Below are positions 3,617 to 41,132 of a stretch of 64,000 nucleotides of DNA, in pieces (position 1 is the first letter of the stretch; each line of letters starts with the position of its first letter). The translations under genes and the position numbers were made by a program. The DNA comes from Oscillospiraceae bacterium (GTDB taxonomy: Bacteria; Bacteroidota; Bacteroidia; Bacteroidales; WCHB1-69): positions 149 through 64,148 of the forward strand of contig CAVEXN010000011.1 in NCBI GenBank assembly GCA_963620035.1, given 5' to 3'. Under the pieces are notes generated by a model that saw only the letters and a program-made list of their open reading frames with translations, was not told the DNA's origin and did no database searches.

Positions 3617-3646
3617 AATTGTTATCTGTTCAATTCAAAAAGGTTG

Positions 3647-3654
3647 CAAAAATA
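3647..3654 (-). promoter_or_regulatory. Bacteroidetes-type -7 promoter box TATTTTTG (TAnnTTTG) for the PPIase operon
   Basis: The minus strand reads tgTATTTTTGcaacc about 31 nt upstream of the ATG at 3616, in a divergent intergenic region. Confidence 0.45.
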
Positions 3655-3780
3655 CAAAAACAATCAATGCATGCTGTCATAAAACGGCGAATCGAGCAAA
3701 ACACAGAGATAGGAAAAAGACGAGAGACCGCCTTTTTTTGCGATTGCGCCATTGACAGTCGAAGCAAAAACGTTTTTTTG

Positions 3781-3788
3781 TATCTTTG
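3781..3788 (+). promoter_or_regulatory. Bacteroidetes-type -7 promoter box TATCTTTG for the OPT transporter gene
   Basis: Matches TAnnTTTG, 41 nt upstream of the ATG at 3829. Confidence 0.4.
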
Positions 3789-3828
3789 ACGGCTTTTTTC
3801 AACGATTCTCAACCAATTTATAATCAAC

Positions 3829-5865
3829 ATGAAAGAAACAGAGAAAGAGAACAATGAGGTTGCCGGCGACATCAGGTTGCCCGACAATGCGCACCGTGAA
3901 CTGAAGGCCGGCGAAACTTACCGTCCCATACTGCGGAGCGACAGGAAGTATCCGGAGTTGAATGCCTGGACCATCACATGGGGCATCGTCATGGCCATTC
4001 TGTTCTCGGCCGCCACGGCCTATTCGGGGTTGCGGTTCGGGCAGGTGTTCGAGGCCGCCATTCCCATCGCCATCATCGCCGTAGGCGCATCCACGTTGGC
4101 AAAGCGCAAGAATCCCTTGTCGGAGAACGTGCTCATACAGTCCATCGGCGCCAGTTCCGGCGTCATAGTTGCCGGCGCCATCTTCACGCTGCCCGCCATC
4201 TACATCATCAAAGAGACCAACCCCGCTGTGGGGGCAGAGATACAGGTCAACTTTTTCCAGATATTCCTCTCCTCGCTGTTGGGCGGCTTTTTAGGCATTC
4301 TGTTTTTGATCCCGTTCCGCAAGTATTTCGTCTCCGACATGCACGGAAAGTATCCGTTCCCTGAAGCCACTGCCACCACTGAGATCATCGTGTCGGGGGC
4401 AAAAGGCGGCAATCAGGCGCGGCTGCTTTTAGTAAGCGGGCTCATCGGCGGACTTTACGACTTTCTGATGACCACGTTCCAATTCTGGGCAGACACCATC
4501 TCCACGCGTATGTGCGGCTGGGGCGAACGGCTGGCCATGAACCACAAGTTCGTCTTCAAGATGAGTGCGGAATCCATCCTGCTGGGCACGGGTTACCTCA
4601 TCGGGCTCAAGTATGCGGCGGTCATCTGTGCGGGCTCCGCCCTCTCGTGGTGGGTCATCGTTCCGCTGTTAGGACAATACGGGGCCATGGACGTCAACGG
4701 GACGATCACCTCTTTATCCACCGCCGACCCGGAGTTCCTCTTTGCCAACTATGCGCGATACATCGGTATCGGCGGCATTGCGATGGCCGGACTGCTCGGC
4801 GTGTGCAAGTCGGCCGGCGTCATCAAGAAATCGCTCGGCGTGGCATTCAAGGCCGGAAAGCAGAAGGGCGGCGCCGCTGACACCCTTCGCACCCAGCGCG
4901 ACATATCCATGAAGATCATCCTCTTCGGCTTTCTTGCCGTACTGGTCATGATGTTCCTGTTCTTCATCTTCGGCGGCATGGAAATGAACTTCAAGCAAAT
5001 AATAGTAGGATTGCTCATCGTGTTCCTGTTCGCCTTCCTGTTCACCACGGTTGCGGCCACCGCCATTGCGACGGTAGGCACCAATCCCGTGTCGGGCATG
5101 ACTATGATGACCCTGATACTCTCGTCGATCGTCTTGGCCGCAGTAGGTCTGAAAGGCGGTGCCGGCATCCTTGCGGCGTTGGTCATCGGCGGCATCGTAT
5201 GTTCCGCATTGGCTATGGCCGGCGGCTTCATCACCGACCTGAAAATCGGATACTGGATCGGCACCTCGCCGTACAAGCAAGAGGGTTTCAAATTCGTGGG
5301 GACACTGGTGTCGGCCCTGACCGTCGGCGCCGTCATCATGTTGCTGTCCAAAACCTACGGTTATACGGGCGAAGACGCTTTAGTTGCGCCGCAGGCCAAT
5401 GCCATGGCAGCCATCATCCAGCCGCTTATGTTTGACGGATCCACCCCTTGGGTGCTTTACATCATAGGCGCCGTGCTGGCCATCCTCCTCGATGTCATCG
5501 GTGTACCCGCTCTGGCATTCTCCTTGGGAATGTTCATTCCCTTGCAGCTCAATCTCCCGCTTCTGGTAGGCGGAGTGCTGGCCTGGTTCGTGAAATCAAG
5601 GAGCAAAGACGAAACCGTGAACCGCATGCGCAGCGAAAAAGGCACCCTGCTCGCTTCCGGACTGCTGGCCGGCGGCGCCATCATGGGCGTGCTCAGCGCC
5701 ATCCTCAAATACTGCGGCGTGGAACCCACATTCATGGGCGAATACATCGGCAGTCCTCTGTTCAACATCTTGTCTGTCGTCATGTTTGCCGGACTGTGCG
5801 TCTATCTTGTACTGCATGCGCTCTCGGCCGGAAAAGAGAAAAACAACCAATCTATAACCGCATAA
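3829..5865 (+). CDS. OPT family oligopeptide transporter
   Basis: 678-aa polytopic membrane protein whose length and multi-TM pattern fit bacterial OPT transporters, with many Gly/Ala-rich TM helices. The N-terminus has the family-typical ELKAGETYRPIL...ELNAWTITWGIVMAILFSAATAYSGLRFGQ. Confidence 0.8.
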   Translation: MKETEKENNEVAGDIRLPDNAHRELKAGETYRPILRSDRKYPELNAWTITWGIVMAILFSAATAYSGLRFGQVFEAAIPIAIIAVGASTLAKRKNPLSENVLIQSIGASSGVIVAGAIFTLPAIYIIKETNPAVGAEIQVNFFQIFLSSLLGGFLGILFLIPFRKYFVSDMHGKYPFPEATATTEIIVSGAKGGNQARLLLVSGLIGGLYDFLMTTFQFWADTISTRMCGWGERLAMNHKFVFKMSAESILLGTGYLIGLKYAAVICAGSALSWWVIVPLLGQYGAMDVNGTITSLSTADPEFLFANYARYIGIGGIAMAGLLGVCKSAGVIKKSLGVAFKAGKQKGGAADTLRTQRDISMKIILFGFLAVLVMMFLFFIFGGMEMNFKQIIVGLLIVFLFAFLFTTVAATAIATVGTNPVSGMTMMTLILSSIVLAAVGLKGGAGILAALVIGGIVCSALAMAGGFITDLKIGYWIGTSPYKQEGFKFVGTLVSALTVGAVIMLLSKTYGYTGEDALVAPQANAMAAIIQPLMFDGSTPWVLYIIGAVLAILLDVIGVPALAFSLGMFIPLQLNLPLLVGGVLAWFVKSRSKDETVNRMRSEKGTLLASGLLAGGAIMGVLSAILKYCGVEPTFMGEYIGSPLFNILSVVMFAGLCVYLVLHALSAGKEKNNQSITA

Positions 5866-5878
5866 AAAAACAATCATC

Positions 5879-6496
5879 ATGCATATCGCTGTAGCCGGCA
5901 ATATCGGTTCCGGGAAAACCACACTCACAGGCATGCTTGCCAAACATTACGGATGGGAACCTCTCTACGAAAGCGTGGACAACAACCCCTATCTGGCCAG
6001 TTTCTATCAAGACATGCAGCGCTGGTCGTTCAACATCCAGATTTTCTTCCTCAACAGCCGCTTCCGCCAAATCCTCGACCTCCGGAAACGGAAAAAAGAC
6101 GTCATCCAAGACCGCACCATCTATGAAGACGCTTTCATCTTCGCCCCCAACCTGCACGACATGAACCTGATGGCCACCCGTGACTTCGAGAATTACTCCT
6201 CCCTGTTCGAGCTGATGTCGCAGTTCATGCAAGCACCCGACCTGCTGATTTACCTCAAGGCAGATGTCTCGACGTTAGTGACCCAAATACTCAAGCGAGG
6301 AAGAGCCTACGAAGACTCCATCCGCCCTTCTTATCTCGAGAACCTGAACCACAAATACGACGAGTGGATTTCGAACTACAAGGACGGAAAACTGCTTGTC
6401 GTTGACGTCAACACCCTCAAGTTTGCCGAGAAACCGGAAGACTTCGGGGAAATCATCAACAAGATAGACGCCGAATTGTTCGGCCTTTTCAAATAA
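5879..6496 (+). CDS. deoxynucleoside kinase
   Basis: P-loop IAVAGNIGSGKTTL, then NPYLASFYQDMQRWSFNIQIFFLNSRF and the DRTIYED motif typical of dAK/dGK family kinases. 205 aa. Confidence 0.85.
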   Translation: MHIAVAGNIGSGKTTLTGMLAKHYGWEPLYESVDNNPYLASFYQDMQRWSFNIQIFFLNSRFRQILDLRKRKKDVIQDRTIYEDAFIFAPNLHDMNLMATRDFENYSSLFELMSQFMQAPDLLIYLKADVSTLVTQILKRGRAYEDSIRPSYLENLNHKYDEWISNYKDGKLLVVDVNTLKFAEKPEDFGEIINKIDAELFGLFK

Positions 6497-6502
6497 AGAA
6501 TA

Positions 6503-7228
6503 ATGAAACACATAGGAATAATACCGGCACGCTATGCCTCAACACGCTTTCCGGGCAAGCCTCTGGCCCTCATCGGCGGGAAGCCTATGATACAGGTGGT
6601 TTATGAACATGCACTGGAAGCCGGGCTCGACCTCGTTGCCGTAGCCACCGACGACGAGCGCATCGCCGGGTGCATACGAAAGATCGGGGGAACTGTCGTG
6701 ATGACCCGCCCCGACCACCCCTCCGGCACCGACCGCTGCGGCGAGGCTGCCGACATACTGCAATTGCTTGACGAGGATGTCGTCATCAACATACAGGGCG
6801 ACGAACCTTTCATAAGCCGCAACGAGATCGAACTGCTCGCCCGGATGTTTGAACGGCCGGAAGTTAACATAGCCACCCTTGTGAAACCTCTTGACCGGCA
6901 AGAGGCCCATAACACAAACAAAGTGAAAGTGGTCACCTCATTCCAGCAGAAAGCCCTCTATTTCAGCCGCTACCCCATCCCTTTCGTACGTGACGCACAA
7001 GACCCGTCACCGGCATACCGCCAACATCTCGGCATCTACGCCTACCGCTGCGGCACACTGCGCAAACTGGTGCGGCTGCAACCATCGCCGCTTGAGAAAA
7101 GCGAGAAACTGGAACAATTGCGTTGGATCGAAAACGATTTCGACATATTCACAGCGCTCTGCAACTATCAAGGCACAGGCATCGACACCCCGGAAGACCT
7201 GGAAAGACTGAATATGCCGAAACCTTAA
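6503..7228 (+). CDS. kdsB: 3-deoxy-manno-octulosonate cytidylyltransferase (CMP-KDO synthetase)
   Basis: IIPARYASTRFPGKPLALIGGKPMIQ, VATDDERI and NIQGDEPF motifs. 241 aa. Confidence 0.9.
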   Translation: MKHIGIIPARYASTRFPGKPLALIGGKPMIQVVYEHALEAGLDLVAVATDDERIAGCIRKIGGTVVMTRPDHPSGTDRCGEAADILQLLDEDVVINIQGDEPFISRNEIELLARMFERPEVNIATLVKPLDRQEAHNTNKVKVVTSFQQKALYFSRYPIPFVRDAQDPSPAYRQHLGIYAYRCGTLRKLVRLQPSPLEKSEKLEQLRWIENDFDIFTALCNYQGTGIDTPEDLERLNMPKP

Positions 7229-7246
7229 CCCCCCTCCCTTTACTCT

Positions 7247-8341
7247 ATGATTACCTATATTATAAAAGCCCTGCAAAGTGACGGTTCCGTGTTCATCAAC
7301 GATTTGGGGACCTTCACCACCCATTATGAACCCGCCAAGATAGACGGCGACATGTTGATACCACCTTGCTGCAAAGTAACCTTGACCCTGCAGCAAGACG
7401 AACCCGATGAAACCGGCTTCATCAACTTCCTGAGCGAAGAAAAGCAATGTATGCTCACGCAAGCCGCAAAAGACATTTCTGAATGGGTGGATAATTTGAA
7501 AAACGCACTGCAACACAACAAAAGCATCAGCTTTGACAATTTCGGCACCTTTTCCATCACCGAAAAAGGTACTATAAGATTTGTATGCGACCATATTGCA
7601 GAACTCAACCACGAATTTGAAGGTATGGAAATCGTTTCCCTCACCAAAAAAGACAAACAAGGGAAAGTTGCCGCCAACGTTGCGCCTTACCCTCAACCAG
7701 AGACTCAACCTCAACCGGAACCGGAACCGGAACCGGAACCGGAGCCTCAACCTCAACCAGAACCGGAACCAGAACCGGAACCGGTTTCTATGCAAGAGGA
7801 TGCCATCAAAGAGGAGGGCAAGACCTCTGTGCCGTCCAAGCACCGTTCACTGCATTGGCTCTTCATCCTGACCATCATCATCGCCGTGTCCGTCTTAGGA
7901 TTTCTGTTCCGGCACCAGATAATGGACACTGTTCGACGCATACAGCACAAGACAGCAGTGCCCGCAGAACCCGCCACCAACGAGAACGCAACGGACGAGA
8001 GCGAGGCTGACTATCTTTCCATAGAAGAGGAGATGACCGATGAGACGGCAGCAGTTGCAAGCGATCCGTGGAGTCCCGAAACAGTGAAAAGCACCGCCGA
8101 CGGTAATTATAACTACATCCGTTTCGAGACCGGCCATTTCTACGTCATAGCCGGCAGTCTGACCAACGAGAAAGACGCGGAACTGCACATCCGGCAAAAG
8201 GGACTTGACGCACACTCGCCTTATTTGCTGTTGCAAGACAACGTGAGCAACATCCGGGTGTGCATCGGCATATACGACAACGAGGAAGAGGCGGAAGCCT
8301 TTGCCAAAAGCATCAACCAGCACTATTGGGTACTCAAATGA
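7247..8341 (+). CDS. HU-like N-terminal domain / SPOR C-terminal domain membrane protein with a Pro-Glu/Gln repeat linker
   Basis: Two HU-CCDC81-like segments (DLGTFTTHYEPA..., FDNFGTFSITEKGTIRF), a PEPEPEPQ low-complexity linker and a TM helix (WLFILTIIIAVSVLGFLF). The C-terminal SPOR-like part reads FYVIAGSLTNEKDAELHIRQ...IRVCIGIYDNEEEAEAFA. Confidence 0.7.
   Translation: MITYIIKALQSDGSVFINDLGTFTTHYEPAKIDGDMLIPPCCKVTLTLQQDEPDETGFINFLSEEKQCMLTQAAKDISEWVDNLKNALQHNKSISFDNFGTFSITEKGTIRFVCDHIAELNHEFEGMEIVSLTKKDKQGKVAANVAPYPQPETQPQPEPEPEPEPEPQPQPEPEPEPEPVSMQEDAIKEEGKTSVPSKHRSLHWLFILTIIIAVSVLGFLFRHQIMDTVRRIQHKTAVPAEPATNENATDESEADYLSIEEEMTDETAAVASDPWSPETVKSTADGNYNYIRFETGHFYVIAGSLTNEKDAELHIRQKGLDAHSPYLLLQDNVSNIRVCIGIYDNEEEAEAFAKSINQHYWVLK
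7689..7785 (+). repeat. in-frame hexanucleotide microsatellite (CCGGAA/CCTCAA units) encoding PQPE/PEPE repeats
   Basis: Four perfect CCGGAA copies at 7715-7738 plus flanking imperfect units (ccggag, cctcaa, ccagaa). Translation is PQPETQPQPEPEPEPEPEPQPQPEPEPEPEP. Confidence 0.9.
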
Positions 8342-9078
8342 CAACAATCAAGCATCTATCATTAAAAAAACACATTCCTAACACGCTGACTTGCCTAAAC
8401 TTGGCTTGTGGCTGTCTTTCGGCAATAGCCGCCTTGGACGGGCATTTGGAGACTGCTGCCATCCTGATTATCGTTTCGTCCCTCTTCGATTTCTGCGACG
8501 GTCTTTCAGCGCGTATGCTGCATGTCACCTCGCCGATCGGCAAAGAGCTCGACTCGCTGGCCGATGTCGTCTCGTTTGGCATGGCCCCCGCCATGATATC
8601 CTACACGTGGCTGAACCGCTGTCTTTATGAAATGTCGCCGCTACTCAATTCCCCGCTGATGCAGTTGCTTCCGTTAATCGTGCTCCTGGTGCCGGCACTT
8701 TCAGCGGTGCGACTGGCCCGCTTCAACATCGACGAGAACCAGAAAGAGTCGTTCCTCGGTCTTCCCACGCCTGCAAACGCCCTCTTTCTGGGATTTCTGC
8801 CCTTGACGGCCGAGCACATTTCCTTTCTCAACAATTTCTGGGCCGTTTGGGGGTTCTGCATCGTCTTCTCTTTGCTGCTGGTGTCACGCATCTGGATGTT
8901 GTCACTCAAGTTCAAAGACTTCAAATGGCAGGGGTTGAACATTGCCCGGTACATCCTCCTCCTCATCAGCATCGTGCTCATCGTAATCTTCCATTGGGGC
9001 GCTTTTCCGCTCATCATCATGGTATATATCCTCATCTCGTTTTTCTATCACGCATTGGTAAAACTACAGATAATATGA
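8338..9078 (+). CDS. pssA: CDP-diacylglycerol--serine O-phosphatidyltransferase
   Basis: Track ORF trimmed to the ATG at 8338 (ATGA overlap with the upstream stop). CDP-alcohol phosphatidyltransferase motif DFCDGLSARMLHVTSPIGKELDSLADVVSFG. Multi-TM. Confidence 0.85.
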   Translation: MTTIKHLSLKKHIPNTLTCLNLACGCLSAIAALDGHLETAAILIIVSSLFDFCDGLSARMLHVTSPIGKELDSLADVVSFGMAPAMISYTWLNRCLYEMSPLLNSPLMQLLPLIVLLVPALSAVRLARFNIDENQKESFLGLPTPANALFLGFLPLTAEHISFLNNFWAVWGFCIVFSLLLVSRIWMLSLKFKDFKWQGLNIARYILLLISIVLIVIFHWGAFPLIIMVYILISFFYHALVKLQII

Positions 9079-16010: not shown

Positions 16011-16104
16011 TTCAAATGAAAAACAAGGTTGCAAAACAACAAAAAAAACGGAGAACTGCAACGCAAAGCTTCACTATTCGTCAACTGAAAGAACATACCG
16101 CACA

Positions 16105-16662
16105 ATGTCCGAGAAAGAACGACAACTGATAAAAGGGTGTATGGAGGGCGACAAAGCAAGCCAGAAACAACTCTATCTGGAGTACGGTCCCGCCATACGG
16201 GGCATCTGCCTGCGATATGCCGCCTCTACGGAGGAGGCCGAGGACCTCTTCCACGACACGTTCCTGTTCATCTTGGTCAACTTCCGCCGTTTCGAGAACA
16301 TCTCTTCTCTGCAAGCCTGGCTTCGCCGCATTGCGGTAAACAAAGCCATCGACCACTACCGCAAATGCCGGCGCACCAGGCAGATGCCACTCGAAGACCT
16401 GACCTGCGAACCCGCCGCTATGGACAGCAAAACCGGCGAAGAAACCCTCTCCATGGACAAACTCGTTTCGTTCATAAACGAACTGCCCGACAAGTACCGT
16501 ATAGCCTTCAACCTGTATGTCATTGACGGCATGGACTATGACGACATTGTGGCAAAGATGGGAGAAACCCCCACAAACGCGCGGACACTGGTGTTCAGAG
16601 CCCGCAACATCCTACAACAGAAAATAAGACGCTATTTGAATCACGAAGAATACGATATATGA
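16105..16662 (+). CDS. ECF-type RNA polymerase sigma-70 family factor
   Basis: Trimmed to MSEKERQLIKGC. Region 2 reads EDLFHDTFLFILVNFRRFENISSLQAWLRRIAVNKAIDHYR. Region 4 reads LPDKYRIAFNLYVIDGMDYDDIVAKMGETPTNARTLVFRAR. Confidence 0.9.
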   Translation: MSEKERQLIKGCMEGDKASQKQLYLEYGPAIRGICLRYAASTEEAEDLFHDTFLFILVNFRRFENISSLQAWLRRIAVNKAIDHYRKCRRTRQMPLEDLTCEPAAMDSKTGEETLSMDKLVSFINELPDKYRIAFNLYVIDGMDYDDIVAKMGETPTNARTLVFRARNILQQKIRRYLNHEEYDI

Positions 16663-17564
16663 ACAAGAAAACATTGAAAGAACAGTTTGATGCATACCGC
16701 CCGCCAGTAGATGAGGCCGGTTGGGCACGCCTTGACTTAGACCACTCCCTGAGGCGCAACCGACGCATGCGCAAGCTGCTCAAGTTCCTGCCCCTCGGCG
16801 CAGTCTGCGCCACCATAGCCGCCGTTGCTGTAGCCTTGTGCATTGCACTGCTACGCCCCGAACTTGACGCAACAGCCGTTGGCCACAGCACTCAACCCTC
16901 GGCACAAGCCACACGCACGACATCCGCAACCAGCGACTACGCAGCAGAGGAAGCGAAAAAAACCGCCCTGCATAACCTTGAAGCAACCGCATCTGCACAC
17001 AAAAACAGTGTTGACACACCGGTTATTACAACTGCAACAACTCCGGCACAATCCGCCGTCGAGAACAGCCGCACCGTCCAAACTGTCACTGCATCAGGCA
17101 ACAGCACAGAACGCATCCCCACCAAGCCGCTGTCGCCTATTGTCGTCAACTACATACCGCCGCTTAGTCCGCTGCCGCCGTTGCGCCTCGCCGAACTGCA
17201 ACCTGATGCGGCCGAAAACGGCATCCAAGAAAACGGAACCGACACGGCTGTGCCGGCACCACAGCCCGCCACCGAACCAAGTCGGCTGTTTCTCGCCCCC
17301 AACGCCTTCACCCCCAACAACGACGGCATAAACGACCTTTTCCTGTTGCAATGCAACGAACACTGCACCTATTTTGAACTCGACATATACACCCGCAACG
17401 GAGAAAACGTTTTCAACGCCAAAAACATCGACCAAGGCTGGAACGGCAAACGCTTCGACAACGGCGAACTTCTGCCGCAAGCCGTGTACGTCTATACGGT
17501 GAAATACCGCACCGCCGAGGGAAAGTCGGGCACCGAACATGGTCAAATACTACTCATCCGATAA
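16659..17564 (+). CDS. anti-sigma-like single-pass membrane protein ending in a T9SS type B sorting domain
   Basis: ATGA overlap with the sigma gene stop. About 41 aa N-terminal segment with a basic stretch (RRNRRMRK) and a TM helix (FLPLGAVCATIAAVAVALCIALL). A Thr/Ala/Pro-rich linker follows, then FLAPNAFTPNNDGINDLFLL...YTRNGENVF...QGWNG...PQAVYVYTVKY...GQILLIR, the gliding-motility-associated / type B CTD pattern. Confidence 0.7.
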   Translation: MNKKTLKEQFDAYRPPVDEAGWARLDLDHSLRRNRRMRKLLKFLPLGAVCATIAAVAVALCIALLRPELDATAVGHSTQPSAQATRTTSATSDYAAEEAKKTALHNLEATASAHKNSVDTPVITTATTPAQSAVENSRTVQTVTASGNSTERIPTKPLSPIVVNYIPPLSPLPPLRLAELQPDAAENGIQENGTDTAVPAPQPATEPSRLFLAPNAFTPNNDGINDLFLLQCNEHCTYFELDIYTRNGENVFNAKNIDQGWNGKRFDNGELLPQAVYVYTVKYRTAEGKSGTEHGQILLIR

Positions 17565-17568
17565 CAGC

Positions 17569-18867
17569 ATGCAAAACTTAGACCGAACCACACCTCCCCC
17601 GCTCCACCCCATCACAGACCTCCGGCTCACCGCCCCGCGGCAACGGACACTGGCGAACGGCATCCCGACATTCCTCTTCGACAACAACCAACTGGAACTC
17701 ATCCACATTATAGTCTCCCTACGCACCGGAATCCTCTATGAACAGACCAAGCACACCGCCCTTTTCGCATTTGCACTCCTGAAAGAGAGTTCACCCGACC
17801 GCACTTCCGAGGAGATGTCTGCGTTCATGGACTTCTACGGGGCCTATCTCACCGTGTCCGAGACCCTCGACAAAACAACGATGCTCCTCACCGTGCCCAA
17901 GCGCAATGTGTCGGCCGTATTGCCGGCGGTGTTCCGTTGCATGACCTCACCACATTACCGGGAGGAGAACCTCGAACGTTACAAATCACTCAAAATCAAA
18001 GACCTCGAATACAACTCACAAAAAAGCGACGTGCGCAACACCCAACTGATGCTCCATTCCATGTTCGGCGGCAGGCATACGGCCGGACAGATCTCTACGC
18101 GCGAGAATATTCAAGCCGTCACGTTACGAGACATTGAAGCGTTTCACCGCAACACTTTTTGCGCCGAGAACCTGAGCCTCCTCGTCACCGGGAATTTAGA
18201 CGGCACCGAAGCGTGCATCTGCGACCTGTTTGCCCAAGTTTGTCATGGGCAAGCGGCATCGCCGTTGACATACATCCCGATGCCCGCCGACCGCACACCT
18301 GTCATTGCCGAAGAGATGCCGGGATGCGTACAGTCGTCCATCACGCTCTGTATGCCGTGCTTTGGCTATACGCACCCCGACCGGCAGGGGTTCTCTATCC
18401 TCTCCACCGTGTTGGGCGGCTATTTCGGCTCACGGCTGATGCAGAACCTCAGAGAACGTAACGGCTACACCTACGGTGTGTCGGCCGGTTCCGTTTATTT
18501 CGGCAGCCAGTCGCTGTTCATCATCAACAGCGATGTCAATGCGGAGCACACCCGAGATGCCCTCGATGCTTGTCTCGAAGAGACAGAACGTCTGCGGCAG
18601 TTGCCTATAGGCGGCGAAGAACTGGAAGCTGCCCGCAACTATCTTTTGGGCGAGATGCTCCGTAGTGTTGACAATTCCGTTTCCTACTCCAAAAAATACA
18701 CATTCTGGCATCATCATGGCACCGACGAGCGCGAGTTTACCGAAACCATCCGCCTGATTCGGAGCATCACGCCAGAACAGTTGCAGACTTTAGCACAAAA
18801 GTATTTCGGATGCAATAAATTCACGAGGATCGTCGTTGGAAGAACCGACAACCTGCAATCGCTATGA
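17569..18867 (+). CDS. M16 (pitrilysin/insulinase) family protein lacking the HxxEH zinc motif (probable pseudopeptidase)
   Basis: Trimmed to MQNLDR. M16 two-domain length (432 aa) with LPNG-like LANGIPTF and a C-terminal R/Y region (LRERNGYTYGVSA). No HxxEH anywhere in the translation: the homologous position reads KHTALFAFALLKE. Confidence 0.7.
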   Translation: MQNLDRTTPPPLHPITDLRLTAPRQRTLANGIPTFLFDNNQLELIHIIVSLRTGILYEQTKHTALFAFALLKESSPDRTSEEMSAFMDFYGAYLTVSETLDKTTMLLTVPKRNVSAVLPAVFRCMTSPHYREENLERYKSLKIKDLEYNSQKSDVRNTQLMLHSMFGGRHTAGQISTRENIQAVTLRDIEAFHRNTFCAENLSLLVTGNLDGTEACICDLFAQVCHGQAASPLTYIPMPADRTPVIAEEMPGCVQSSITLCMPCFGYTHPDRQGFSILSTVLGGYFGSRLMQNLRERNGYTYGVSAGSVYFGSQSLFIINSDVNAEHTRDALDACLEETERLRQLPIGGEELEAARNYLLGEMLRSVDNSVSYSKKYTFWHHHGTDEREFTETIRLIRSITPEQLQTLAQKYFGCNKFTRIVVGRTDNLQSL

Positions 18868-20951
18868 AGAGAACACTCGCCATTATAGGACTTCTGCTTT
18901 CCATGACGGGGGTTTTTGCCGTAGAACCGCCCATTCTTCAGTGCATAAAGCCCGTGACAAACAACACGCAACTTGAAATCTCGTGGACCTGGGACAATCC
19001 GGGAAACATCGGTTCCGACATCTACGACATCTACATCAACGGCACAAAAGCCGCCACGCTCAACCAGTCGGCAGCCGTGATTGTCGGCAACACGCGGATC
19101 GCGCTCACCTCCACGGCAGAGACATACTCGTGTCACATCATCGCCAAAAACAGCAGCGGCACCGACAGCGTAATGTCGAACACGCTGACCACATTGAGTC
19201 TCACCGTCACCCCGCGCACCATTGACGGCCGCGACAGCAGCGGCGCACTCCTTATCTGGCCCGCCCTCACCGACGGCACTATGAGCGCATCGTGGGACTC
19301 TTGCTACTGCGTATATAAGAAGAGAGAATTTGAAGAGGACTTCGACTACCGGTCGCCCGTGGCCTCCATCCCATTCTCCAACACCGCCCCCTCGTATCTT
19401 GACACTTCAGACGTGTGCAACCGCAATATCTCCTACCAGATTGGCATCACCAACCATATCAGCACGTCAGGCAGCAATGCCTGCTACTTCACATCGAAAA
19501 TCAAAAACATCAAACTCTACGACAACATAAAGCCTTATGTGCCGACACTCGACAGTGTTTCGGTTACAGAAGAGAACACGGTATTGTTAGGGTTCCACAC
19601 TGCCGAACCTTATATGTGGGCGTATATCGTCTATCAGGACGACGGCATCGGCGGCGGCGAATGTCTGGACACGGTCTTCAACGCCACGCAATGGATTGAC
19701 CACGGGATCAACCCCTCCGCAGAACAGCGCGGATACAAGATCGCCGTCCTCGACTCCTGCAACAACTGCTCCAATATGACCGAAGAACCGCAGTCGAACA
19801 TGGTGCTGGCCTCGCCTGCCACGGATGCCTGCCGCAAGAGTGCACAGCTGCATTGGGGACGATATGCCAACCTGACGGGCGGTCTTCTGGAGTACCGTAT
19901 TTTCCTCAGCACGGACGGCGGTGCCACATACCGTCACGCCGGCAACGCTGCAACGCCGGATTTCACACTCGAAAACCTTGAAACCGGCATCGAATACCGT
20001 GCTTTCGTTCGCGCCGTAAACCAAGACAGCAGCATCACTGCAAGCAGCAACCGCGTAAACTTCCGCATCGAAAATGAAGACACCCCCGACGAGACCTACA
20101 TACGCTCCGTATCCGTCACCGACAATGCCTACATCACCGTCAAGGTGCATACTTCAGGTGATGAATATCCGTTCGAGAAACTGGTGCTGCAACGAAGCGT
20201 TGACGGCATCAACTTCACGTCCCACGCCGAACTGCCCTACAATAATGGGACCGAATATGAGTTCAAGGACACCACTGCCGACTTCGCCTCGAAAATCTAC
20301 TACTACCGCACTTGTATCATCAGCGGCGACTGCGGCATAGAATCCGGCATCTCCAACATCTCGCACAACATCCTGCTTTCAGGCACAACAGACGCCGCAC
20401 ACCAATGCAACCTCGAATGGCAAGGCTATGAGGGATGGGACGGTGAAGTAAGCCATTACGAAGTGCTGCTGAGAACCGAATACGAGGACAGTTTCCTGCA
20501 ACTGACGGGAGACCTTCCTCCACTGCCCCACAACGCATACACCGACGACGTGTCCGAGATGTCAGAAACCGGATCCAAGTTCACCTACTGCATCGTTGCA
20601 AGAGAAACCCCCGACAACTTCGGTTTTGAAGAGAGCAGTGTTTCCAACCATGTCACCTTACAGCAAGCATCCACCATCATCATGGCCAACGCCTTCACTC
20701 CCAACTATGACGGCCTTAATGAAGTTTTCAGGCCCATGAACGCCTTCGTATCCAGCGAACACTATGTTTTCACCATCCTTTCGAGGTTCGGTAAGACGGT
20801 ATTCCGTACGAATGACCCCACAGCAGGCTGGGACGGAAACAATATGGACGGCTCCCATGCTCCGGCAGGGGTATATGTTTACATCATCGACTATATGGAT
20901 GCGCAAGGTGGCATAAAGCAACTCAGAGGCAGCGTCACCCTGCTGCGATAG
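18864..20951 (+). CDS. large secreted FN3/Ig-like repeat protein with T9SS type B sorting domain
   Basis: ATGA overlap with the upstream stop. Signal peptide MKRTLAIIGLLLSMTGVFA. Several FN3-like segments (for example LHWGRYANLTGGLLEYRIFLSTDGGATYRHAG...GIEYRAFVRAVN). C-terminus MANAFTPNYDGLNEVFRP...AGWDGN...PAGVYVYIIDY...GSVTLLR. Confidence 0.75.
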   Translation: MKRTLAIIGLLLSMTGVFAVEPPILQCIKPVTNNTQLEISWTWDNPGNIGSDIYDIYINGTKAATLNQSAAVIVGNTRIALTSTAETYSCHIIAKNSSGTDSVMSNTLTTLSLTVTPRTIDGRDSSGALLIWPALTDGTMSASWDSCYCVYKKREFEEDFDYRSPVASIPFSNTAPSYLDTSDVCNRNISYQIGITNHISTSGSNACYFTSKIKNIKLYDNIKPYVPTLDSVSVTEENTVLLGFHTAEPYMWAYIVYQDDGIGGGECLDTVFNATQWIDHGINPSAEQRGYKIAVLDSCNNCSNMTEEPQSNMVLASPATDACRKSAQLHWGRYANLTGGLLEYRIFLSTDGGATYRHAGNAATPDFTLENLETGIEYRAFVRAVNQDSSITASSNRVNFRIENEDTPDETYIRSVSVTDNAYITVKVHTSGDEYPFEKLVLQRSVDGINFTSHAELPYNNGTEYEFKDTTADFASKIYYYRTCIISGDCGIESGISNISHNILLSGTTDAAHQCNLEWQGYEGWDGEVSHYEVLLRTEYEDSFLQLTGDLPPLPHNAYTDDVSEMSETGSKFTYCIVARETPDNFGFEESSVSNHVTLQQASTIIMANAFTPNYDGLNEVFRPMNAFVSSEHYVFTILSRFGKTVFRTNDPTAGWDGNNMDGSHAPAGVYVYIIDYMDAQGGIKQLRGSVTLLR

Positions 20952-20957
20952 GCTCCC

Positions 20958-22031
20958 CTATCTCACCTTTATTTTCTGCCCGACAGAGAGGATGCTCGTC
21001 TCCTTTATTCTGTTAAGTTTGCACAACTCTGACACCGTGGTGTGATAACGGCGTGCAATAGCCGACAACGTGTCACCTTGCTTCACCTTGTGGTACTGCG
21101 GTGCAGGGGAAAGTCCCGTGCCGTCACTTTGCGATGCGACGGTTTTGCCTGTTTTGGCAGAATCAAGTGTATCAGGACTGCTCTTGTCGGAAGAATCGGT
21201 GACAATGAGTTTATTGGGTTCCATGACAATAATGGTATTGGCCTTACGGTCTATATTCTGATACGCCGTATTCAGCGTGGCTACCGATATGGGAATGTCT
21301 TTGTTGACAATCCGCGGCATATCGGCCTTAGAGTGGCTGAAGAGCCATTCGTATGTCTGCGGCAGATAGAACATCTTGGCCAATTGGCCGTGGTTGACGC
21401 CTTTCAACTTGTCGAAGCGGAGCAAGTCGGTATCCCCGCAGTTTTTCATGTCATTCACGATGCGCTGTGAGCAGGACACGGACACGGCGCGGTCGGCGGT
21501 TCCGTGTATGATCCAAAGCGGCACGCGGTTGAGACCGCAATGGCTTTTTAGGTTGCTGCCGCCGCACAGCGCCATAGCCGCCGCACAGCGCTCGGGATAG
21601 GTTGCCACATACTCGAACGTGCCATAGCCGCCGAGACTCATGCCGATCACATAGATGCGGTTGGTGTCCATATCATAATGGGCCTGAACCCAATCGAGCA
21701 CATTGTTGATCTTGAGCGGTTTCCAGGGGCCGCCGGGGTTCTGAGGAGCCACAATCAGCGCATTGATGGTTCTTCCCATCGACAATGCGTCCAGACAACC
21801 GTATTTGCGAACCCTGTTCAGGTCGTTGCCGCACAGACTATTGCCGTGCAGGAAAAGCACTACCGGGGTCTTCTCTTTTGTCTCCTCATATGTGTCCGGC
21901 ACTGAAAGCCAGAAATTGTAGCCGTTCTCGACAACTCTTCGATGTGCTATCAGTTCGTACTCCTTTTGGGAGAATGTCATCAAACTCGGCAGTAGCAGTA
22001 TGAACAACAGCAGTATCTTGTTTCTTTTCAT
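20958..22031 (-). CDS. secreted alpha/beta-hydrolase (esterase/peptidase S9-like) fused to a C-terminal LysM domain
   Basis: Signal peptide ...PSLMTFS|Q. Nucleophile elbow GMSLGG, Asp (HGTADRAV) and His (GVNHGQL). C-terminal LysM YHKVKQGDTLSAIARRYHTTVSELCKLNRIKETSILSVGQKIKV. Confidence 0.75.
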   Translation of the reverse strand: MKRNKILLLFILLLPSLMTFSQKEYELIAHRRVVENGYNFWLSVPDTYEETKEKTPVVLFLHGNSLCGNDLNRVRKYGCLDALSMGRTINALIVAPQNPGGPWKPLKINNVLDWVQAHYDMDTNRIYVIGMSLGGYGTFEYVATYPERCAAAMALCGGSNLKSHCGLNRVPLWIIHGTADRAVSVSCSQRIVNDMKNCGDTDLLRFDKLKGVNHGQLAKMFYLPQTYEWLFSHSKADMPRIVNKDIPISVATLNTAYQNIDRKANTIIVMEPNKLIVTDSSDKSSPDTLDSAKTGKTVASQSDGTGLSPAPQYHKVKQGDTLSAIARRYHTTVSELCKLNRIKETSILSVGQKIKVR

Positions 22032-28712: not shown

Positions 28713-29651
28713 CTAAAATTCCCAAAGGTCACTCTCGAACGTACGGAGTTTGTCCGTAATCCTTTCCGATTCGAGGCGCTGATCCCTTGAGTTTGCTATA
28801 TAGTCGGCGATGTCACGGTCATAGACATTGGCCTCCTTGTAAATGAAACTGGTGAAATCGCGTTTCCAGGTAAGCAAGTCGTCGAATGAAATGCGTTGCG
28901 CATTATTCTTGACATTATAGACTTCCTGTTTGGCGAGGAAAGGGCGAAGTTCGTTGTAATAGATGTACCCTACCCTTTTCTTCATCATGACCCCTCTGAC
29001 ATCCTCGTCGCCGCTGCCCTCATCGTCATAAGAAGAGGCGCTCTGGCGTTCATGTTCAATGATGGGCTCGATTTCAAGAATCTGGACGAAGAAACGGGAA
29101 GCCTGTTTGTCGAAATACCATATCTCTTTCACATTGTATGAAATGACCTGTTTCGGTTCGTATTCGACAATCATCTCTTTCATGCCGATTTCCTCACCAG
29201 TTTCGAGGTCGATTTCAGGGATTTGGGACACTTCGGAGAGGTTTCCCCTCAATTCATCCCTTGAAAATGGGAGTGTACACATCTCATCGGAATAAATCGG
29301 AAGAACGCCTTCTGTCTTTTCAGGGTTCTGGACATCCATGGCGTCAAAAATCACCTGCGAAAGACTTCTCCATGTTCCTTTGGTTTCGGTGGGGAAATAG
29401 AGCGGGTGGTTGATTTTCTCACGCAAGTCGATGGTTCTCCAAACGGTATAGTAATACATAACGTCGGCCTGACGGACAGATGGATATGCCACAGGGTCTG
29501 AAAACTCGCCCACGTCAACCTGTTCCCAGGAGAACTCGACAGGCTTGCGCACCGGCTGGTTCATGGTGCTGCCTGTAGTCTCTTCTTCTTCCTGTGCGAA
29601 GATCGAAAATGAAGCCGCAAGGGCTAAAAACAACAAACTGAACTTTTTCAT
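28713..29651 (-). CDS. porN: T9SS ring protein PorN/GldN
   Basis: Signal peptide ...SFSIFA|QEEEE. GldN signature VRQADVMYYYTVWRTIDLREKINHPLYFP. Last gene of the porPKLMN order. Confidence 0.9.
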   Translation of the reverse strand: MKKFSLLFLALAASFSIFAQEEEETTGSTMNQPVRKPVEFSWEQVDVGEFSDPVAYPSVRQADVMYYYTVWRTIDLREKINHPLYFPTETKGTWRSLSQVIFDAMDVQNPEKTEGVLPIYSDEMCTLPFSRDELRGNLSEVSQIPEIDLETGEEIGMKEMIVEYEPKQVISYNVKEIWYFDKQASRFFVQILEIEPIIEHERQSASSYDDEGSGDEDVRGVMMKKRVGYIYYNELRPFLAKQEVYNVKNNAQRISFDDLLTWKRDFTSFIYKEANVYDRDIADYIANSRDQRLESERITDKLRTFESDLWEF

Positions 29652-29673
29652 AATAAAGGGTAGTTTTAAAAAA

Positions 29674-31308
29674 TTATCTGATACGTACAGAGAACTCGTC
29701 GAGTGTACGAGTACCTGCTTCTGAAGAAACCTTGATGTCTGTGAAATAGATCACGGTATTGGCCGAGGCCTTCTTGATTTTGTTTTGGACAGTTTCGGAA
29801 AGTGCGCCGCCTTGACAAGCGATTGCAGGGTCTTCCATGCCTTTGCTGACAAAAATAACTCTGAAAGAGTTGACTTTCCATTTCAGGTCATAGGCGAAAT
29901 CCTCACCCATTGTTGCGCGGATAACCGGATTGGCCGTAAGTTCAGCCTTGGCGCGTTTGCCTCCACGAATACCGGCACCGAGCACGGCACGGGGATCCGG
30001 GACTCTCTTGACACGGAATGTCGTAGCACCAAGGTTCTTGCTTGCAGCATCACCTAATTTGGCTGAAACAGTAGCATTTACCGTCTTGCCGATCATGTTG
30101 GCCGGTACAGACACGTTGAACTTGCCGCCGCCGGCATTGGTGACATTACAGCCCGGGAAAGAGACGCTCAACTTGCCGGGATCGACAGGGGCTGAAACAG
30201 AAACAGGGTTTGCGATGCCTGCATAAAGCACATTCATCTTCTCCGCAGCAATGGTTGCCGAAGGTTTCAGGACTGAATATTTGTCCTTGAAGCCATAATA
30301 TTTAGGCTGGCCGTTCGGGTCCATGATTTTGATGAGGCCTGCATATTTCTGGTCTCCCGGATTGCCCGCCGAAATCTTCAGTTTCACGATGCCATTCTCG
30401 CCTTCCAACTTGGTAGCGGAGGAGATACCGTCTTCCGTCAGCGTGTCGACTCCCATCTTGTAGTAAACCTCAGGGGTCTGCTTGGTATCGTAAGCGGCCA
30501 CGATGATGTCTGCCTCATAACTGTCGCCGGAGAACACCATTCGGGAATTAGGGATGGCACGACCTGACACCTTGTCGAACTTGAAGTCATCGGCACTGAT
30601 GGAAGACTTGAGGTAAGCAAGCATGACGGACTCGGCGTTGCGTATTTCGCCGATTTCCTTGTTCAAGAGTGTAACAGCGGCCGCTGCGATGATATGGTCG
30701 AAGTTATGCTCTTCCCAGCTCTGTTCAAACCCGTCTTTTTTGTATTTCGTGTCGACATCCAGCCCGACCAATGCGCTGATTCTTTCCTGGTCTGCGGGTC
30801 TTACCATCTTCAAGATATTGGATTTGTATTCTTTGATCTTTTTTTTCATAGCAACGGCGTTGCCTTTGTTGATCATGAAATCCGTAGGTTTGTCGAAGTT
30901 CTCCTTGGATTCCATCGTGGCGATGGTCTTTGCCTGTTTCACTTTCTTGCCGTCATCTGTTTTCACTTCAGCAAGAGTGTCACCATCAACATAGAGGATA
31001 AGGTCACTTCTCAACTTCTCAATATAATTGACGATGTCAGTGGTCTCTTTCCTGAGGGTTTTGGCTTTGACGTATGCGTCATGGATTTTGGCTTCGCCCA
31101 AAATCAGTTTCTGTTGTTCAAACCAGTTGTAGTCGTTGCCGTTTTGTATAGTAGTGTTTCGCATACTTGTCTGCAGCGTGTCGTCCACCACGATGAAAGC
31201 ATTGAGGATATCTGCGGATACGTTCAAAGCCAACATTGCGGTATAGACCAGATACATCATCTGGATCATTTTCTGTCTCGGGGTCTCCGGACAATTTGTT
31301 GCTCCCAT
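29674..31308 (-). CDS. porM: T9SS motor/shaft protein PorM/GldM
   Basis: The N-terminus ETPRQKMIQMMYLVYTAMLALNVS matches the conserved GldM TM region. 544 aa. Confidence 0.9.
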   Translation of the reverse strand: MGATNCPETPRQKMIQMMYLVYTAMLALNVSADILNAFIVVDDTLQTSMRNTTIQNGNDYNWFEQQKLILGEAKIHDAYVKAKTLRKETTDIVNYIEKLRSDLILYVDGDTLAEVKTDDGKKVKQAKTIATMESKENFDKPTDFMINKGNAVAMKKKIKEYKSNILKMVRPADQERISALVGLDVDTKYKKDGFEQSWEEHNFDHIIAAAAVTLLNKEIGEIRNAESVMLAYLKSSISADDFKFDKVSGRAIPNSRMVFSGDSYEADIIVAAYDTKQTPEVYYKMGVDTLTEDGISSATKLEGENGIVKLKISAGNPGDQKYAGLIKIMDPNGQPKYYGFKDKYSVLKPSATIAAEKMNVLYAGIANPVSVSAPVDPGKLSVSFPGCNVTNAGGGKFNVSVPANMIGKTVNATVSAKLGDAASKNLGATTFRVKRVPDPRAVLGAGIRGGKRAKAELTANPVIRATMGEDFAYDLKWKVNSFRVIFVSKGMEDPAIACQGGALSETVQNKIKKASANTVIYFTDIKVSSEAGTRTLDEFSVRIR

Positions 31309-31370
31309 TTTCTATATTATTAATGTAAGGTTAGGATTAAATTGAGAAAAATGATTAAGATGATTCAAAA

Positions 31371-32093
31371 CTATTTGCCGGGGTGAACGCCCATGGCAGC
31401 CAGCATATTTCCGTAAATGGTGCTGAGAGAAGAGATGTTCTTGGTCAGTTTGTCCATTTCGGCCTTGTAGTTGGTGGTCTGCTCGTATGCGGCCGTCAAC
31501 TGGTTCACGGCATTGGTGGCTTTCTTGAGGCTTTCGAGGTAAGCAGACGAAGCGTTGCTGTCGGTTTCGAGAGAAGCGGCTACTTTGTCGTATTTGAGAG
31601 TGAGGTTGCGTACAGACTCGGCTGCCTTGGTCATGTTGCCCACGAAGTTGTCCGTCGCAACTGCGGCATCAGAAACGCCAGCAAGTTTCTTGGCATTGTC
31701 GCTGAGGTTTCTCATACCGGTGGCAAGACTTTCAATCAGTTCGGGCCCGATTTTGGCTTCTTCGAGCATCTTGTCGAGTTGTTGGGTGGCGCTTGCACCT
31801 TGCATCTGTTTTTTCTTCTCTCTCTTCGTAGGTTCTGCCTGTGTCTCTTCGCCGGTGGCAAGTTCAGGATATACCAAAGACCAGTTGAACTCAACGTGAG
31901 GCGGTTCAAATGCGGACAGGAAGAAAATCACACTCTCCGTGAACATACCGACCATAAGCATGGCATTTGCGCCAGGCCAGTGAAGAATTTTGAACAATGC
32001 ACCTACAATAACCACTGCGGCACCCCAACCATACAGTTTCGCCATAAAGTTCTTGTACCCGTTAGTTCTAACTAATCTGTTAATTGCGTTCAT
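31371..32093 (-). CDS. porL: T9SS motor protein PorL/GldL
   Basis: YGWGAAVVIVGALFKILHWPGANAMLMVGMFTESVIFFLSAFEPP is near-identical in pattern to the GldL TM hairpin. 240 aa. Confidence 0.9.
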   Translation of the reverse strand: MNAINRLVRTNGYKNFMAKLYGWGAAVVIVGALFKILHWPGANAMLMVGMFTESVIFFLSAFEPPHVEFNWSLVYPELATGEETQAEPTKREKKKQMQGASATQQLDKMLEEAKIGPELIESLATGMRNLSDNAKKLAGVSDAAVATDNFVGNMTKAAESVRNLTLKYDKVAASLETDSNASSAYLESLKKATNAVNQLTAAYEQTTNYKAEMDKLTKNISSLSTIYGNMLAAMGVHPGK

Positions 32094-32142
32094 TTTTTAA
32101 ATTAATTTAGATTGATGATTAATAATAGTGATTTTTATTTTC

Positions 32143-33582: not shown

Positions 33583-33622
33583 ATTTATGTTTTTTCTAAC
33601 GTTGAATATGCCGGTTTATTTT

Positions 33623-40574: not shown

Positions 40575-41132
40575 ATGCCAGAAGCGTCTGACGATTTCAT
40601 CCTTGCCCTTTTCGAAAACAGCAAGACCAAAGAACAGGCTTTTGAACTGCTGGTGAAAAAATACCAGAAAGTCATCTATTTCAACACACGGCGTATCGTC
40701 TCCCTCCACGAAGACGCAAACGATGTCACCCAAAACGTCTTCATCAAAATCTGGCAGAACCTGCAGAATTTCCGTAAAGAATCAAGCCTCAAGACTTGGA
40801 TAACGAAGATTTCCGTAAACGAAGCGTTGACTTTCATAGAGAAAAAGAAAAAGACCTTGAACCTCGCCGACGACAGTTACGCAGACTTTCTTGTCGTGAG
40901 CCAGCCTGAAACGAATTTCATCTCACCTGACGAAATACAGCAAATGCTTCAGGAAGAAATACTCAGGCTTCCACCCAAACAACGCGCCGTATTCACCATG
41001 CGCTACTACGACGAGACTCCTTACGCAGAAATGTCCAAGATTTTCGACACATCCGAAAGCGCACTGAAAGCCTCCTACCACTTCGCCGCAGAAAAAATCA
41101 AGAAAAAATTATCCGAACGTTTAACTTTTTAA
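40575..41132 (+). CDS. ECF-type RNA polymerase sigma-70 family factor
   Basis: Region 2 DANDVTQNVFIKIWQNLQNFRKESSLKTWITKISVNEALTFI. Region 4 LPPKQRAVFTMRYYDETPYAEMSKIFDTSESALKASYHFA. Confidence 0.9.
   Translation: MPEASDDFILALFENSKTKEQAFELLVKKYQKVIYFNTRRIVSLHEDANDVTQNVFIKIWQNLQNFRKESSLKTWITKISVNEALTFIEKKKKTLNLADDSYADFLVVSQPETNFISPDEIQQMLQEEILRLPPKQRAVFTMRYYDETPYAEMSKIFDTSESALKASYHFAAEKIKKKLSERLTF

Follow-up and report, generated by a model that had tools for sequence, protein, structure and literature searches.

A conserved sigma factor module of gut and rumen Bacteroidales in which a candidate anti-sigma factor carries a type B T9SS sorting domain

Gene content, conservation and promoter of the module

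We analyzed a 64,000-nucleotide stretch of DNA (hereafter the window) from an Oscillospiraceae bacterium (GTDB lineage Bacteria; Bacteroidota; Bacteroidia; Bacteroidales; WCHB1-69; GenBank assembly GCA_963620035.1, contig CAVEXN010000011.1, positions 149 to 64,148 of the forward strand). The window takes in practically the entire contig, which is part of a metagenome-assembled genome. The subject of this work is a four-gene module at 16105-20951 (+). Direct reading of the open reading frames (ORFs) gives, in series, an extracytoplasmic function (ECF) sigma factor, a protein labeled P2 (product of the second gene, 16659-17564), an M16-like protein and a protein labeled P4 (product of the fourth gene, 18864-20951). 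P2 and P4 both end in a T9SS (type IX secretion system) CTD (C-terminal domain) of type B. The features are listed below.

16057-16082 (+): ECF-type promoter, -35 TGCAAC at 16057-16062, 15-nt spacer, -10 TCGTC at 16078-16082, 23 nt before the sigma ATG
16105-16662 (+): ECF (group 4) sigma-70 factor, 185 amino acids (aa) (Sigma70_r2, Sigma70_r4_2, TIGR02937)
16659-17564 (+): P2, 301 aa (ORF; CHU_C, TIGR04131)
17569-18867 (+): M16B-type protein, 432 aa, without zinc site or signal peptide (Peptidase_M16_C)
18864-20951 (+): P4, 695 aa (fn3, CHU_C, TIGR04131)

The end of the sigma gene overlaps the P2 start in an ATGA at 16659-16662. The P2 stop codon TAA (17562-17564) is followed by CAGC (17565-17568) and by the ATG of the M16-like gene at 17569, and a second ATGA at 18864-18867 joins the end of the M16-like gene to the start of P4. 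Re-reading of these junctions returned the same four ORFs, with the same two overlaps and one gap, that the initial annotation had given. The M16-like start at 17569 was chosen by comparison with the starts of orthologues; automatic calls on public contigs use an alternative in-frame start at 17539. The upstream neighbor (Pur_DNA_glyco) is divergent and the downstream neighbor is convergent, therefore the four genes are bounded as a unit. Judged from the tight packing, they probably form one transcript.

The sigma factor contains only the sigma-2 and sigma-4 regions and its 185 aa fall within the size range of ECF group 4 (~170-200 aa). It matches Sigma70_r2 with 57.8 bits (residues 23-90), Sigma70_r4_2 with 44.1 bits (residues 119-168) and TIGR02937 with 80 bits (cutoff 42.9). 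It scored 74.7 bits against NF058625 (PG0214/GFO_1088 type), below the cutoff of 130, and reached no named subfamily cutoff. Orthologues of the sigma factor are present in all related loci.

Conservation of the gene order had been set as a check in the initial annotation. The order sigma-P2-M16-P4 is kept in 21 of 21 other distinct related loci, so the adjacency is not a matter of chance. These loci are 14 non-duplicates of 15 loci in metagenome-assembled genomes (MAGs), which came up when one genome for each species was scanned (sources: rumen, deer, sheep, buffalo and human gut), plus loci L007, L009, L011, L028, L029, L030 and L033. All carriers are uncultured Bacteroidales or Bacteroidetes MAGs or metagenome contigs, from gut and rumen. 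P4 is cut by the contig end in three of the 21 loci and was not seen in L027. Identity to the window drops to ~32% for the sigma factor and P4, 26-29% for P2 and 40% for the M16-like protein (27% in L033). P2 homologues are close to one another in length (about 285-308 aa) and make up a compact family, and all their contigs bear the four genes in the same order. More than 120 clusters of M16 orthologues (90% identity clustering) share at least 44% identity with the window protein; three orthologues chosen at 45-49% identity all lie inside the same module. The flanking genes are less constant. In the window's group the module is flanked upstream by Pur_DNA_glyco and downstream by an esterase-LysM gene; in L011, L028 and L029 the upstream gene is RNase HII, and L030 and L033 have different genes again, which makes at least three flanking contexts in all. 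Because the flanks differ between groups, inherited synteny alone is insufficient to account for the conserved order. L033 (positions 2029-9001 of a Joint Genome Institute (JGI) metagenome contig) has the gene series sigA, M16a, sigB, a P2-like gene (355 aa), M16b (zinc-less) and a P4-like gene (666 aa). Its P2-like protein has an extra immunoglobulin (Ig)-like domain and otherwise keeps the P2 design.

The 180 nt upstream of the sigma start were aligned for 20 distinct loci. All 20 distinct upstream sequences contain TGCAAC-N15/16-TCGTC/T, 36-50 nt 5' of the sigma ATG, and the spacers and surroundings of the motif have diverged. AAC at -35 together with CGT at -10 is the classical ECF promoter signature. 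A position weight matrix (PWM) built from these instances ranks 16057-16082 first in the window with 22.1 bits. The next scores are 18.9 bits (within an ORF) and 18.5 bits (at the start of the divergent Pur_DNA_glyco coding sequence). An exact-match scan with GCAAC-N15-17-TCGTY found a single instance in the window, at the module promoter. A conserved AAC/CGT-type promoter before the sigma factor's own gene suggests autoregulation; most simply, the operon as a whole would be under positive autoregulation. Taken together, the conserved order, the tight junctions and the single conserved ECF-type promoter agree with the view, put forward in the initial annotation, that the four genes are one co-regulated unit.

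Other promoter-like matches were also considered. A match at 16016 (-) was rejected since it is the conserved start of the Pur_DNA_glyco coding sequence, and sigma-70-type promoters or terminators within the operon were dismissed as their counts were no higher than in shuffled sequence. A weaker GCAAT-N16-TCGTT at 18812-18837 (+) lies 52 nt before the P4 start, inside the end of the M16-like gene. Only L013, a close relative, has it as well, and it is probably due to coding-sequence conservation or chance.

More distant P4-like genes also occur outside the module. In L031 (6960-7001), GCAAT-N16-TCGTT is found 41 nt before the ATG of a solitary P4-like gene (681 aa) with no sigma, P2 or M16 gene nearby; an ordinary type B cargo gene with a signal peptide follows. 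This single case is consistent with control in trans by a similar sigma factor. In L033 (15605-15652), TGCAAT-N15-ATCGTT is located 45 nt upstream of a gene that matches the T9SS protein PorQ over its first 117 residues (NF033711, 106.7 bits). This PorQ-type gene, again one case, may belong to the regulon, or the motif may be a coincidence.

P2, P4 and the M16-like protein

P2 can be divided into four parts:

16659-16784 (+): P2 residues 1-42, conserved N-segment, predicted cytoplasmic (motif, charge, AlphaFold2)
16785-16853 (+): P2 residues 43-65, single transmembrane helix, predicted N-in signal anchor (hydrophobicity, AlphaFold2)
16854-17285 (+): P2 residues 66-209, disordered Pro/Thr/Ala/Ser-rich tether (pLDDT, alignment)
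17286-17564 (+): P2 residues 210-301 and stop codon, type B T9SS CTD (CHU_C, TIGR04131, AlphaFold2, Foldseek)

This layout is common to 18 orthologues, with an N-region of 39-51 aa, the helix, the tether and a CTD of ~92 residues. The N-segment carries the motif LKEQFxxYxxPVxExxWxxI followed by a basic cluster; E19 and W22 are invariant and P16/V17 nearly so. AlphaFold2 (AF2) predicts three short helices here with low confidence (predicted local distance difference test (pLDDT) about 60) and places the membrane helix at 44-64. Among the 18 orthologues the 15 residues before the helix have a net charge of +3 to +7 and the hydrophobic stretch is 19-24 aa long (23 aa in the window), which exceeds a typical signal-peptide core. 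Because of this charge distribution and helix length, P2 is best described as an N-in signal anchor rather than a protein with a cleavable signal peptide. Described type B CTD cargo has a cleavable Sec signal peptide; P2 has in its place the 42-aa conserved N-region and the 23-aa helix. The predicted single-pass, N-in topology is that of anti-sigma factors. The P2 gene directly follows the sigma gene in all related loci, often overlapping it, which is the usual anti-sigma position, and it is presumably co-transcribed with the sigma gene. P2 was initially annotated as a membrane protein with the position and architecture of an anti-sigma factor, and the charge and helix length in the 18 orthologues agree with the predicted topology.

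The tether cannot be aligned between lineages, yet it is 133-162 aa long in 17 loci and 193 aa long in L033. The AF2 model has pLDDT below 50 across residues 65-198. To look for the P2 N-terminus in other contexts, a profile of it was searched against 1.84 billion representative proteins. It retrieved 45 proteins, of which nearly all are fragments or have a length of about 283-322 aa, and nine of nine plausible full-length members tested end in CHU_C. No joining of the N-module to other sensor domains was found among these representative proteins, only the ~300-aa P2 architecture. Since only this architecture was found, the N-motif, helix, tether and CTD constitute one fixed design. Full-length P2 showed no known anti-sigma domain (zf-HC2/ZAS, RskA, FecR, RsgI_N or similar) in Pfam and NCBIfam; its matches to these curated profiles are to the type B T9SS domain only.

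The profile check proposed in the initial annotation gave scores above the type B CTD cutoffs for both C-termini. The P2 CTD (residues 213-300 of 301) matches CHU_C (PF13585) with 68.8 bits (cutoff 27) and TIGR04131 with 50.2 bits (cutoff 35), spanning model positions 3-84 of 85. The P4 CTD (residues 606-695 of 695) scores 54.2 bits with CHU_C and 42.2 bits with TIGR04131. The P2 CTD is modeled as a confident beta-sandwich (pLDDT around 90), and Foldseek matched it to Ig/fibronectin type III (FN3)-like domains, including T9SS substrate CTDs in translocon complexes (8glk_D and 8gl6_D). All 18 P2 orthologues contain the block PNAF(T/S)PNxDGxND in the CTD, with minor substitutions. In the P4 CTD (about 20673-20948 in the window, and orthologues) the GDG part of GDGxND is lost in about half of the lineages, e.g., PNAFRPLGANNPVF, which explains the weak or missing CHU_C matches on some P4 orthologues. 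In Flavobacterium johnsoniae every conserved type B motif is required for secretion (PMC12618676). As P2 keeps the motif block and P4 has lost part of it in about half of its lineages, the protein in the anti-sigma position bears the more canonical secretion signal. CTD identity averages 51% for P2-P2, 51% for P4-P4 and 35% for P2-P4 comparisons, which suggests two ancient lineages, each maintained for a role of its own. Co-evolution or gene conversion of the two CTDs was considered and rejected: P2-P4 identity is 35.2% within a genome and 35.1% between genomes.

P4 consists of a signal peptide (residues 1-19, cleavage between ...VFA and VEPP), about six FN3-like domains (about residues 24-600) and the type B CTD (about residues 604-695). 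The cleavable signal peptide was assigned by inspection (MKRTLAIIGLLLSMTGVFA before VEPP), and the cleavage region is kept in four aligned orthologues. P4 was annotated from the start as FN3-rich, and three lines of evidence agree with that: one Pfam fn3 match of 36.6 bits, an all-beta AF2 model with about six beta-sandwich domains (mean pLDDT 85.8), and Foldseek matches that are almost solely tandem FN3/Ig-like arrays (E down to 2e-18). An attempt to read a function from the fold failed, as these arrays are generic. No catalytic or known ligand-binding domain was detected in P4. Its homologues are 659-713 aa long; in 31 of them, conservation extends to length, to the cysteines and to many motifs. 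The term adhesin, used initially for P4, is unsupported for a conserved protein of this kind without a recognizable binding or catalytic domain. P4 is, on the features predicted from its sequence, a defined structural surface protein and not a variable adhesin.

The M16-like protein matches Peptidase_M16_C (PF05193, the 'inactive domain' family) with 98 bits; the Pfam scan gave no match to PF00675, the catalytic-domain family. The zinc motif HxxEH is absent in 18 of 18 aligned module copies, in agreement with the zinc-less M16 first proposed, and the window reads ...TALFAFALLKESS... at its place. No signal peptide was found on the protein or on any orthologue. Sequence matches in the PDB are 3gwb (E 6e-19), 3amj_B (E 6e-15) and 3hdi (over query residues 26-376). 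By sequence, the nearest solved relatives are inactive M16B subunits, 3gwb and 3amj_B. The score against the NCBIfam YfmF-like family is 61 bits, below that family's cutoff. Heterodimeric M16B peptidases are represented by the Sphingomonas sp. A1 pair (PDB 3amj) and by the Bacillus subtilis YfmF/YfmH type, and it is the inactive subunit that the module protein resembles most. The module differs from them in holding the zinc-less subunit only, in the window and in all related loci except L033. L033 is the sole locus with a presumed active M16 partner next door: its M16a is YfmH-like, has an intact HLFEH motif and likewise lacks a signal peptide. Because of this zinc-motif partner, the M16 protein of the module is probably one half, the non-catalytic one, of an M16B heterodimer in the cytoplasm. 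In most lineages the gene for the active partner would lie elsewhere. M16 clamshell peptidases favor short peptides, and we know of no described link of M16B proteins with sigma/anti-sigma pairs.

A possible T9SS-responsive sigma/anti-sigma circuit

A complete T9SS core operon lies in the window, therefore the organism has a T9SS:

28713-34675 (-): porP/sprF-porK-porL-porM-porN (T9SS core operon), 7.8 kb downstream of the module (Pfam/NCBIfam matches)

Matches in this operon are PorP_SprF (116 bits), FGE-sulfatase (145 bits), GldL_N, GldM domains 1-4 and GldN (186 bits). Its porP gene scores 126.5 bits with TIGR03519 (cutoff 90.55) and is the only PorP/SprF-family gene seen in the window. In Porphyromonas gingivalis, PorP is the partner of the sole type B cargo of that species (PMC9143113).

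We propose that the module is an autoregulated ECF sigma/anti-sigma operon in which P2 is the anti-sigma factor and its CTD engages the T9SS; we regard this as an evenly balanced proposition. Residues 1-42 of P2 would hold the sigma factor in the cytoplasm, the single helix would cross the inner membrane and the tether of ~140 residues and constant length would carry the type B CTD across the periplasm. There the CTD would be recognized like cargo by the outer-membrane T9SS, either by a PorP/SprF-type shuttle or by the translocon. P2 would stay anchored in the inner membrane, and engagement by the T9SS would alter the state of the anti-sigma factor and free the sigma factor. The change of state might come about by capture, by pulling, or by cleavage followed by intramembrane proteolysis. 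P4 would leave by the same route, so that its expression would be tied to a working, available T9SS. Control could run in either of two directions, activation on engagement or competition with P4 leading to negative feedback. The M16-like protein might handle the small cytoplasmic anti-sigma fragment, as ClpXP does elsewhere. This role was proposed because of the preference of M16 peptidases for short peptides and the ClpXP step in the RsgI and RseA pathways. The ClpXP step is described in PMC12203970.

One further observation favors the proposal: a second sigma gene in the window also precedes a small protein with a P2-like N-terminal layout. This second ECF sigma gene (40575-41132, +) is followed by a 111-aa ORF (41177-41512, +) whose product combines a short N-region (...NYQIPEDYFNNLPGQVMNRIRKEKKKRR) with a basic cluster and a single membrane helix, a layout like the P2 N-terminus, with no CTD.

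A more specific version, which we consider doubtful, treats P2 as a pseudo-cargo: engagement by the T9SS motor would pull P2 or expose it to proteolysis, the sigma factor would be freed and a cytoplasmic M16B pair (the zinc-less module subunit plus an active partner) would clear the remaining stub of ~65 residues. The tether would be just long enough for the periplasm, and transcription would directly report secretion activity or free capacity.

Several points weigh against the proposed circuit. The first concerns the N-segment of P2. The N-terminal 49 residues of 11 family members match no Pfam family at E up to 10, therefore membership in a known anti-sigma family is not established, and the segment of ~42 residues is shorter than classical anti-sigma domains. 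Binding of P2 to the sigma factor and sensing of the T9SS by its CTD are both inferred, and the CTD of an inner-membrane-anchored protein would have to reach or enter the T9SS. Neither the exact-match scan nor the PWM scan found a convincing second promoter target in the window, the region upstream of porPKLMN included, which leaves the CTDs as the link to the T9SS. No PorP/SprF gene adjoins the module in any locus examined. Many type B cargo genes of F. johnsoniae adjoin such a gene (PMC12618676) and orphan type B cargo is known (PMC12618676, PMC9143113); without a PorP/SprF gene beside them, both CTDs of the module are 'orphans' in the sense of PMC12618676. An active M16 partner is not encoded in the window, and disposal of the anti-sigma fragment by M16 is speculation by analogy.

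It is also conceivable, and in our judgment unlikely, that P2 is an anti-sigma factor whose CTD does not dock to the T9SS and acts as a periplasmic receptor or ligand domain, sensing un-exported cargo (P4) or some other partner. A precedent is found in P. gingivalis, where the CTD of the cargo protein PorA attaches to PorY, a sensor kinase, within the periplasm and switches on PorXY-SigP (PMC12152298, PMC7712824); a PorA CTD tethered to the inner membrane still activates signaling (PMC12152298). The distinct, separately conserved CTDs of P2 and P4 are what would be expected for different partners, and the retention of GDG in P2, with its loss from P4 in about half of the lineages, fits as well. 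However, a tether of ~140 residues and conserved length would be needless for a soluble periplasmic ligand, and the lack of any same-genome excess in P2-P4 CTD similarity gives no sign of co-evolution.

Slightly further down the scale, we think it rather unlikely that P2 is no anti-sigma factor at all. P2 would then be ordinary type B cargo or a membrane-anchored stalk co-expressed with P4, its N-region and helix would serve as a long export signal, and control of the sigma factor would come about by other means. Disordered Pro/Thr-rich regions such as the tether are frequent in surface proteins. The absence of detectable homology between the P2 N-terminus and anti-sigma domains speaks for this explanation, as does the fact that the type B CTD proteins characterized in PMC9143113 and PMC12618676 are all secreted or on the surface. 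On the other hand, an N-region of 39-51 aa with an invariant E and W, followed by a helix of 19-24 aa, is no normal Sec signal peptide. The fixed place of the P2 gene directly behind the sigma gene, and the second sigma gene of the window with its product of the same N-terminal layout, also argue against it.

That the four genes are neighbors by chance or inherited synteny, with no functional link, is extremely improbable: the loci nearest the window do share Pur_DNA_glyco and esterase-LysM flanks, so part of the pattern is plain synteny, but the module is intact despite altered flanks (L011, L028 and L029; L030; L033), persists down to ~30% identity, and consists of closely packed or overlapping genes behind a single conserved promoter.

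Comparison with known systems and neighboring genes

The initial annotation stated that no ECF signaling mechanism uses a T9SS sorting domain as its sensor. As worded this does not hold and needs qualifying, because the PorA CTD activates PorXY-SigP; the narrower statement, that a CTD fused to an anti-sigma factor is undescribed, appears to stand. A full-text literature search found no published anti-sigma factor with a T9SS CTD, and the main text of the ECF reclassification paper (PMC7826278) mentions neither M16 nor gliding/T9SS CTDs. Trans-envelope signaling through ECF sigma/anti-sigma pairs is known as such.

In the PorA-PorXY-SigP pathway, as in the circuit proposed here, a T9SS CTD is both secretion signal and signaling element and the output is an autoregulated ECF sigma factor. 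The differences are considerable. PorA is a free cargo protein whose signal peptide is cleaved and whose CTD is of type A, its relay runs through the PorY/PorX two-component system instead of an anti-sigma factor, and the regulon consists of T9SS genes. In the module, it is the protein in the anti-sigma position that carries the CTD, which is of type B, and within the window no target other than the operon was seen.

The external modules of RsgI proteins are of the same kind as those in the proteins they regulate (carbohydrate-binding modules), to which the CTDs of P2 and P4 are a parallel. SigI is not a group 4 ECF sigma factor. The SigI/RsgI systems of Clostridium thermocellum and B. subtilis (PMC10328401, PMC9732909, PMC12203970) share with the module the short N-segment, one helix, a disordered linker and an external C-terminal module, and a last cytoplasmic proteolytic step is required for the released N-terminal fragment, as proposed for P2. 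There is no sequence similarity, however, and RsgI_N was undetected in P2 by Pfam. RsgI proteins belong to Gram-positive envelopes and have an autoproteolytic SEAL domain, which P2 lacks.

In the FecI/FecR/FecA system, the periplasmic C-terminus of an inner-membrane anti-sigma factor touches a machine of the outer membrane, whose state is passed on to an ECF sigma factor. The same kind of trans-envelope relay is proposed for P2. P2 has no FecR domain, its proposed partner is the T9SS and not a TonB-dependent transducer, and no TonB-dependent receptor is encoded in the module. The FecR-clade ECF groups are listed in PMC7826278. Compared with known pairs of type B cargo and PorP/SprF (PG1035-PorP and SprB-SprF; PMC9143113, PMC12618676), P2 and P4 likewise pass the TIGR04131 and PF13585 cutoffs and a PorP gene is present in the window. 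P2 differs in lacking a cleavable signal peptide and in its predicted inner-membrane anchor, and no PorP/SprF gene lies beside the module.

The module is widespread in rumen and gut Bacteroidales, with P2 falling into 45 clusters at 50% identity. How Bacteroidota match cargo output to T9SS capacity is, to our knowledge, largely unknown beyond the PorA-PorXY-SigP pathway of Porphyromonas, and the module would be a simple alternative to the PorA loop, with the secretion signal built straight into the protein that takes the anti-sigma position. If the proposed circuit is correct, ECF signaling would gain a new type of sensor, T9SS activity would have a compact promoter/sigma/anti-sigma reporter, and cytoplasmic zinc-less M16B proteins would be placed in a regulatory context for the first time. 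The pseudo-cargo version, if true, would activate an ECF sigma factor by a new route and put a secretion signal to a new use in regulation. If the proposal is false, the module is still a well-defined conserved operon for an uncharacterized FN3-rod surface protein.

Three neighboring genes of the window are recorded here. The product of the convergent gene downstream of the module (20958-22031, -) is esterase-like and secreted and has a LysM domain at its C-terminus; the gene keeps its synteny with the module in the window's lineage group only and not in the other groups. An ORF of 1155 aa (36097-39564, -), situated between the por genes and the second sigma gene, has an N-terminal signal-like sequence and no Pfam or NCBIfam match. 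A third ECF sigma gene (63496-64000, +) is cut by the end of the window; its product is 40% identical to sigB of L033, compared with 32% for the module's own sigma factor.

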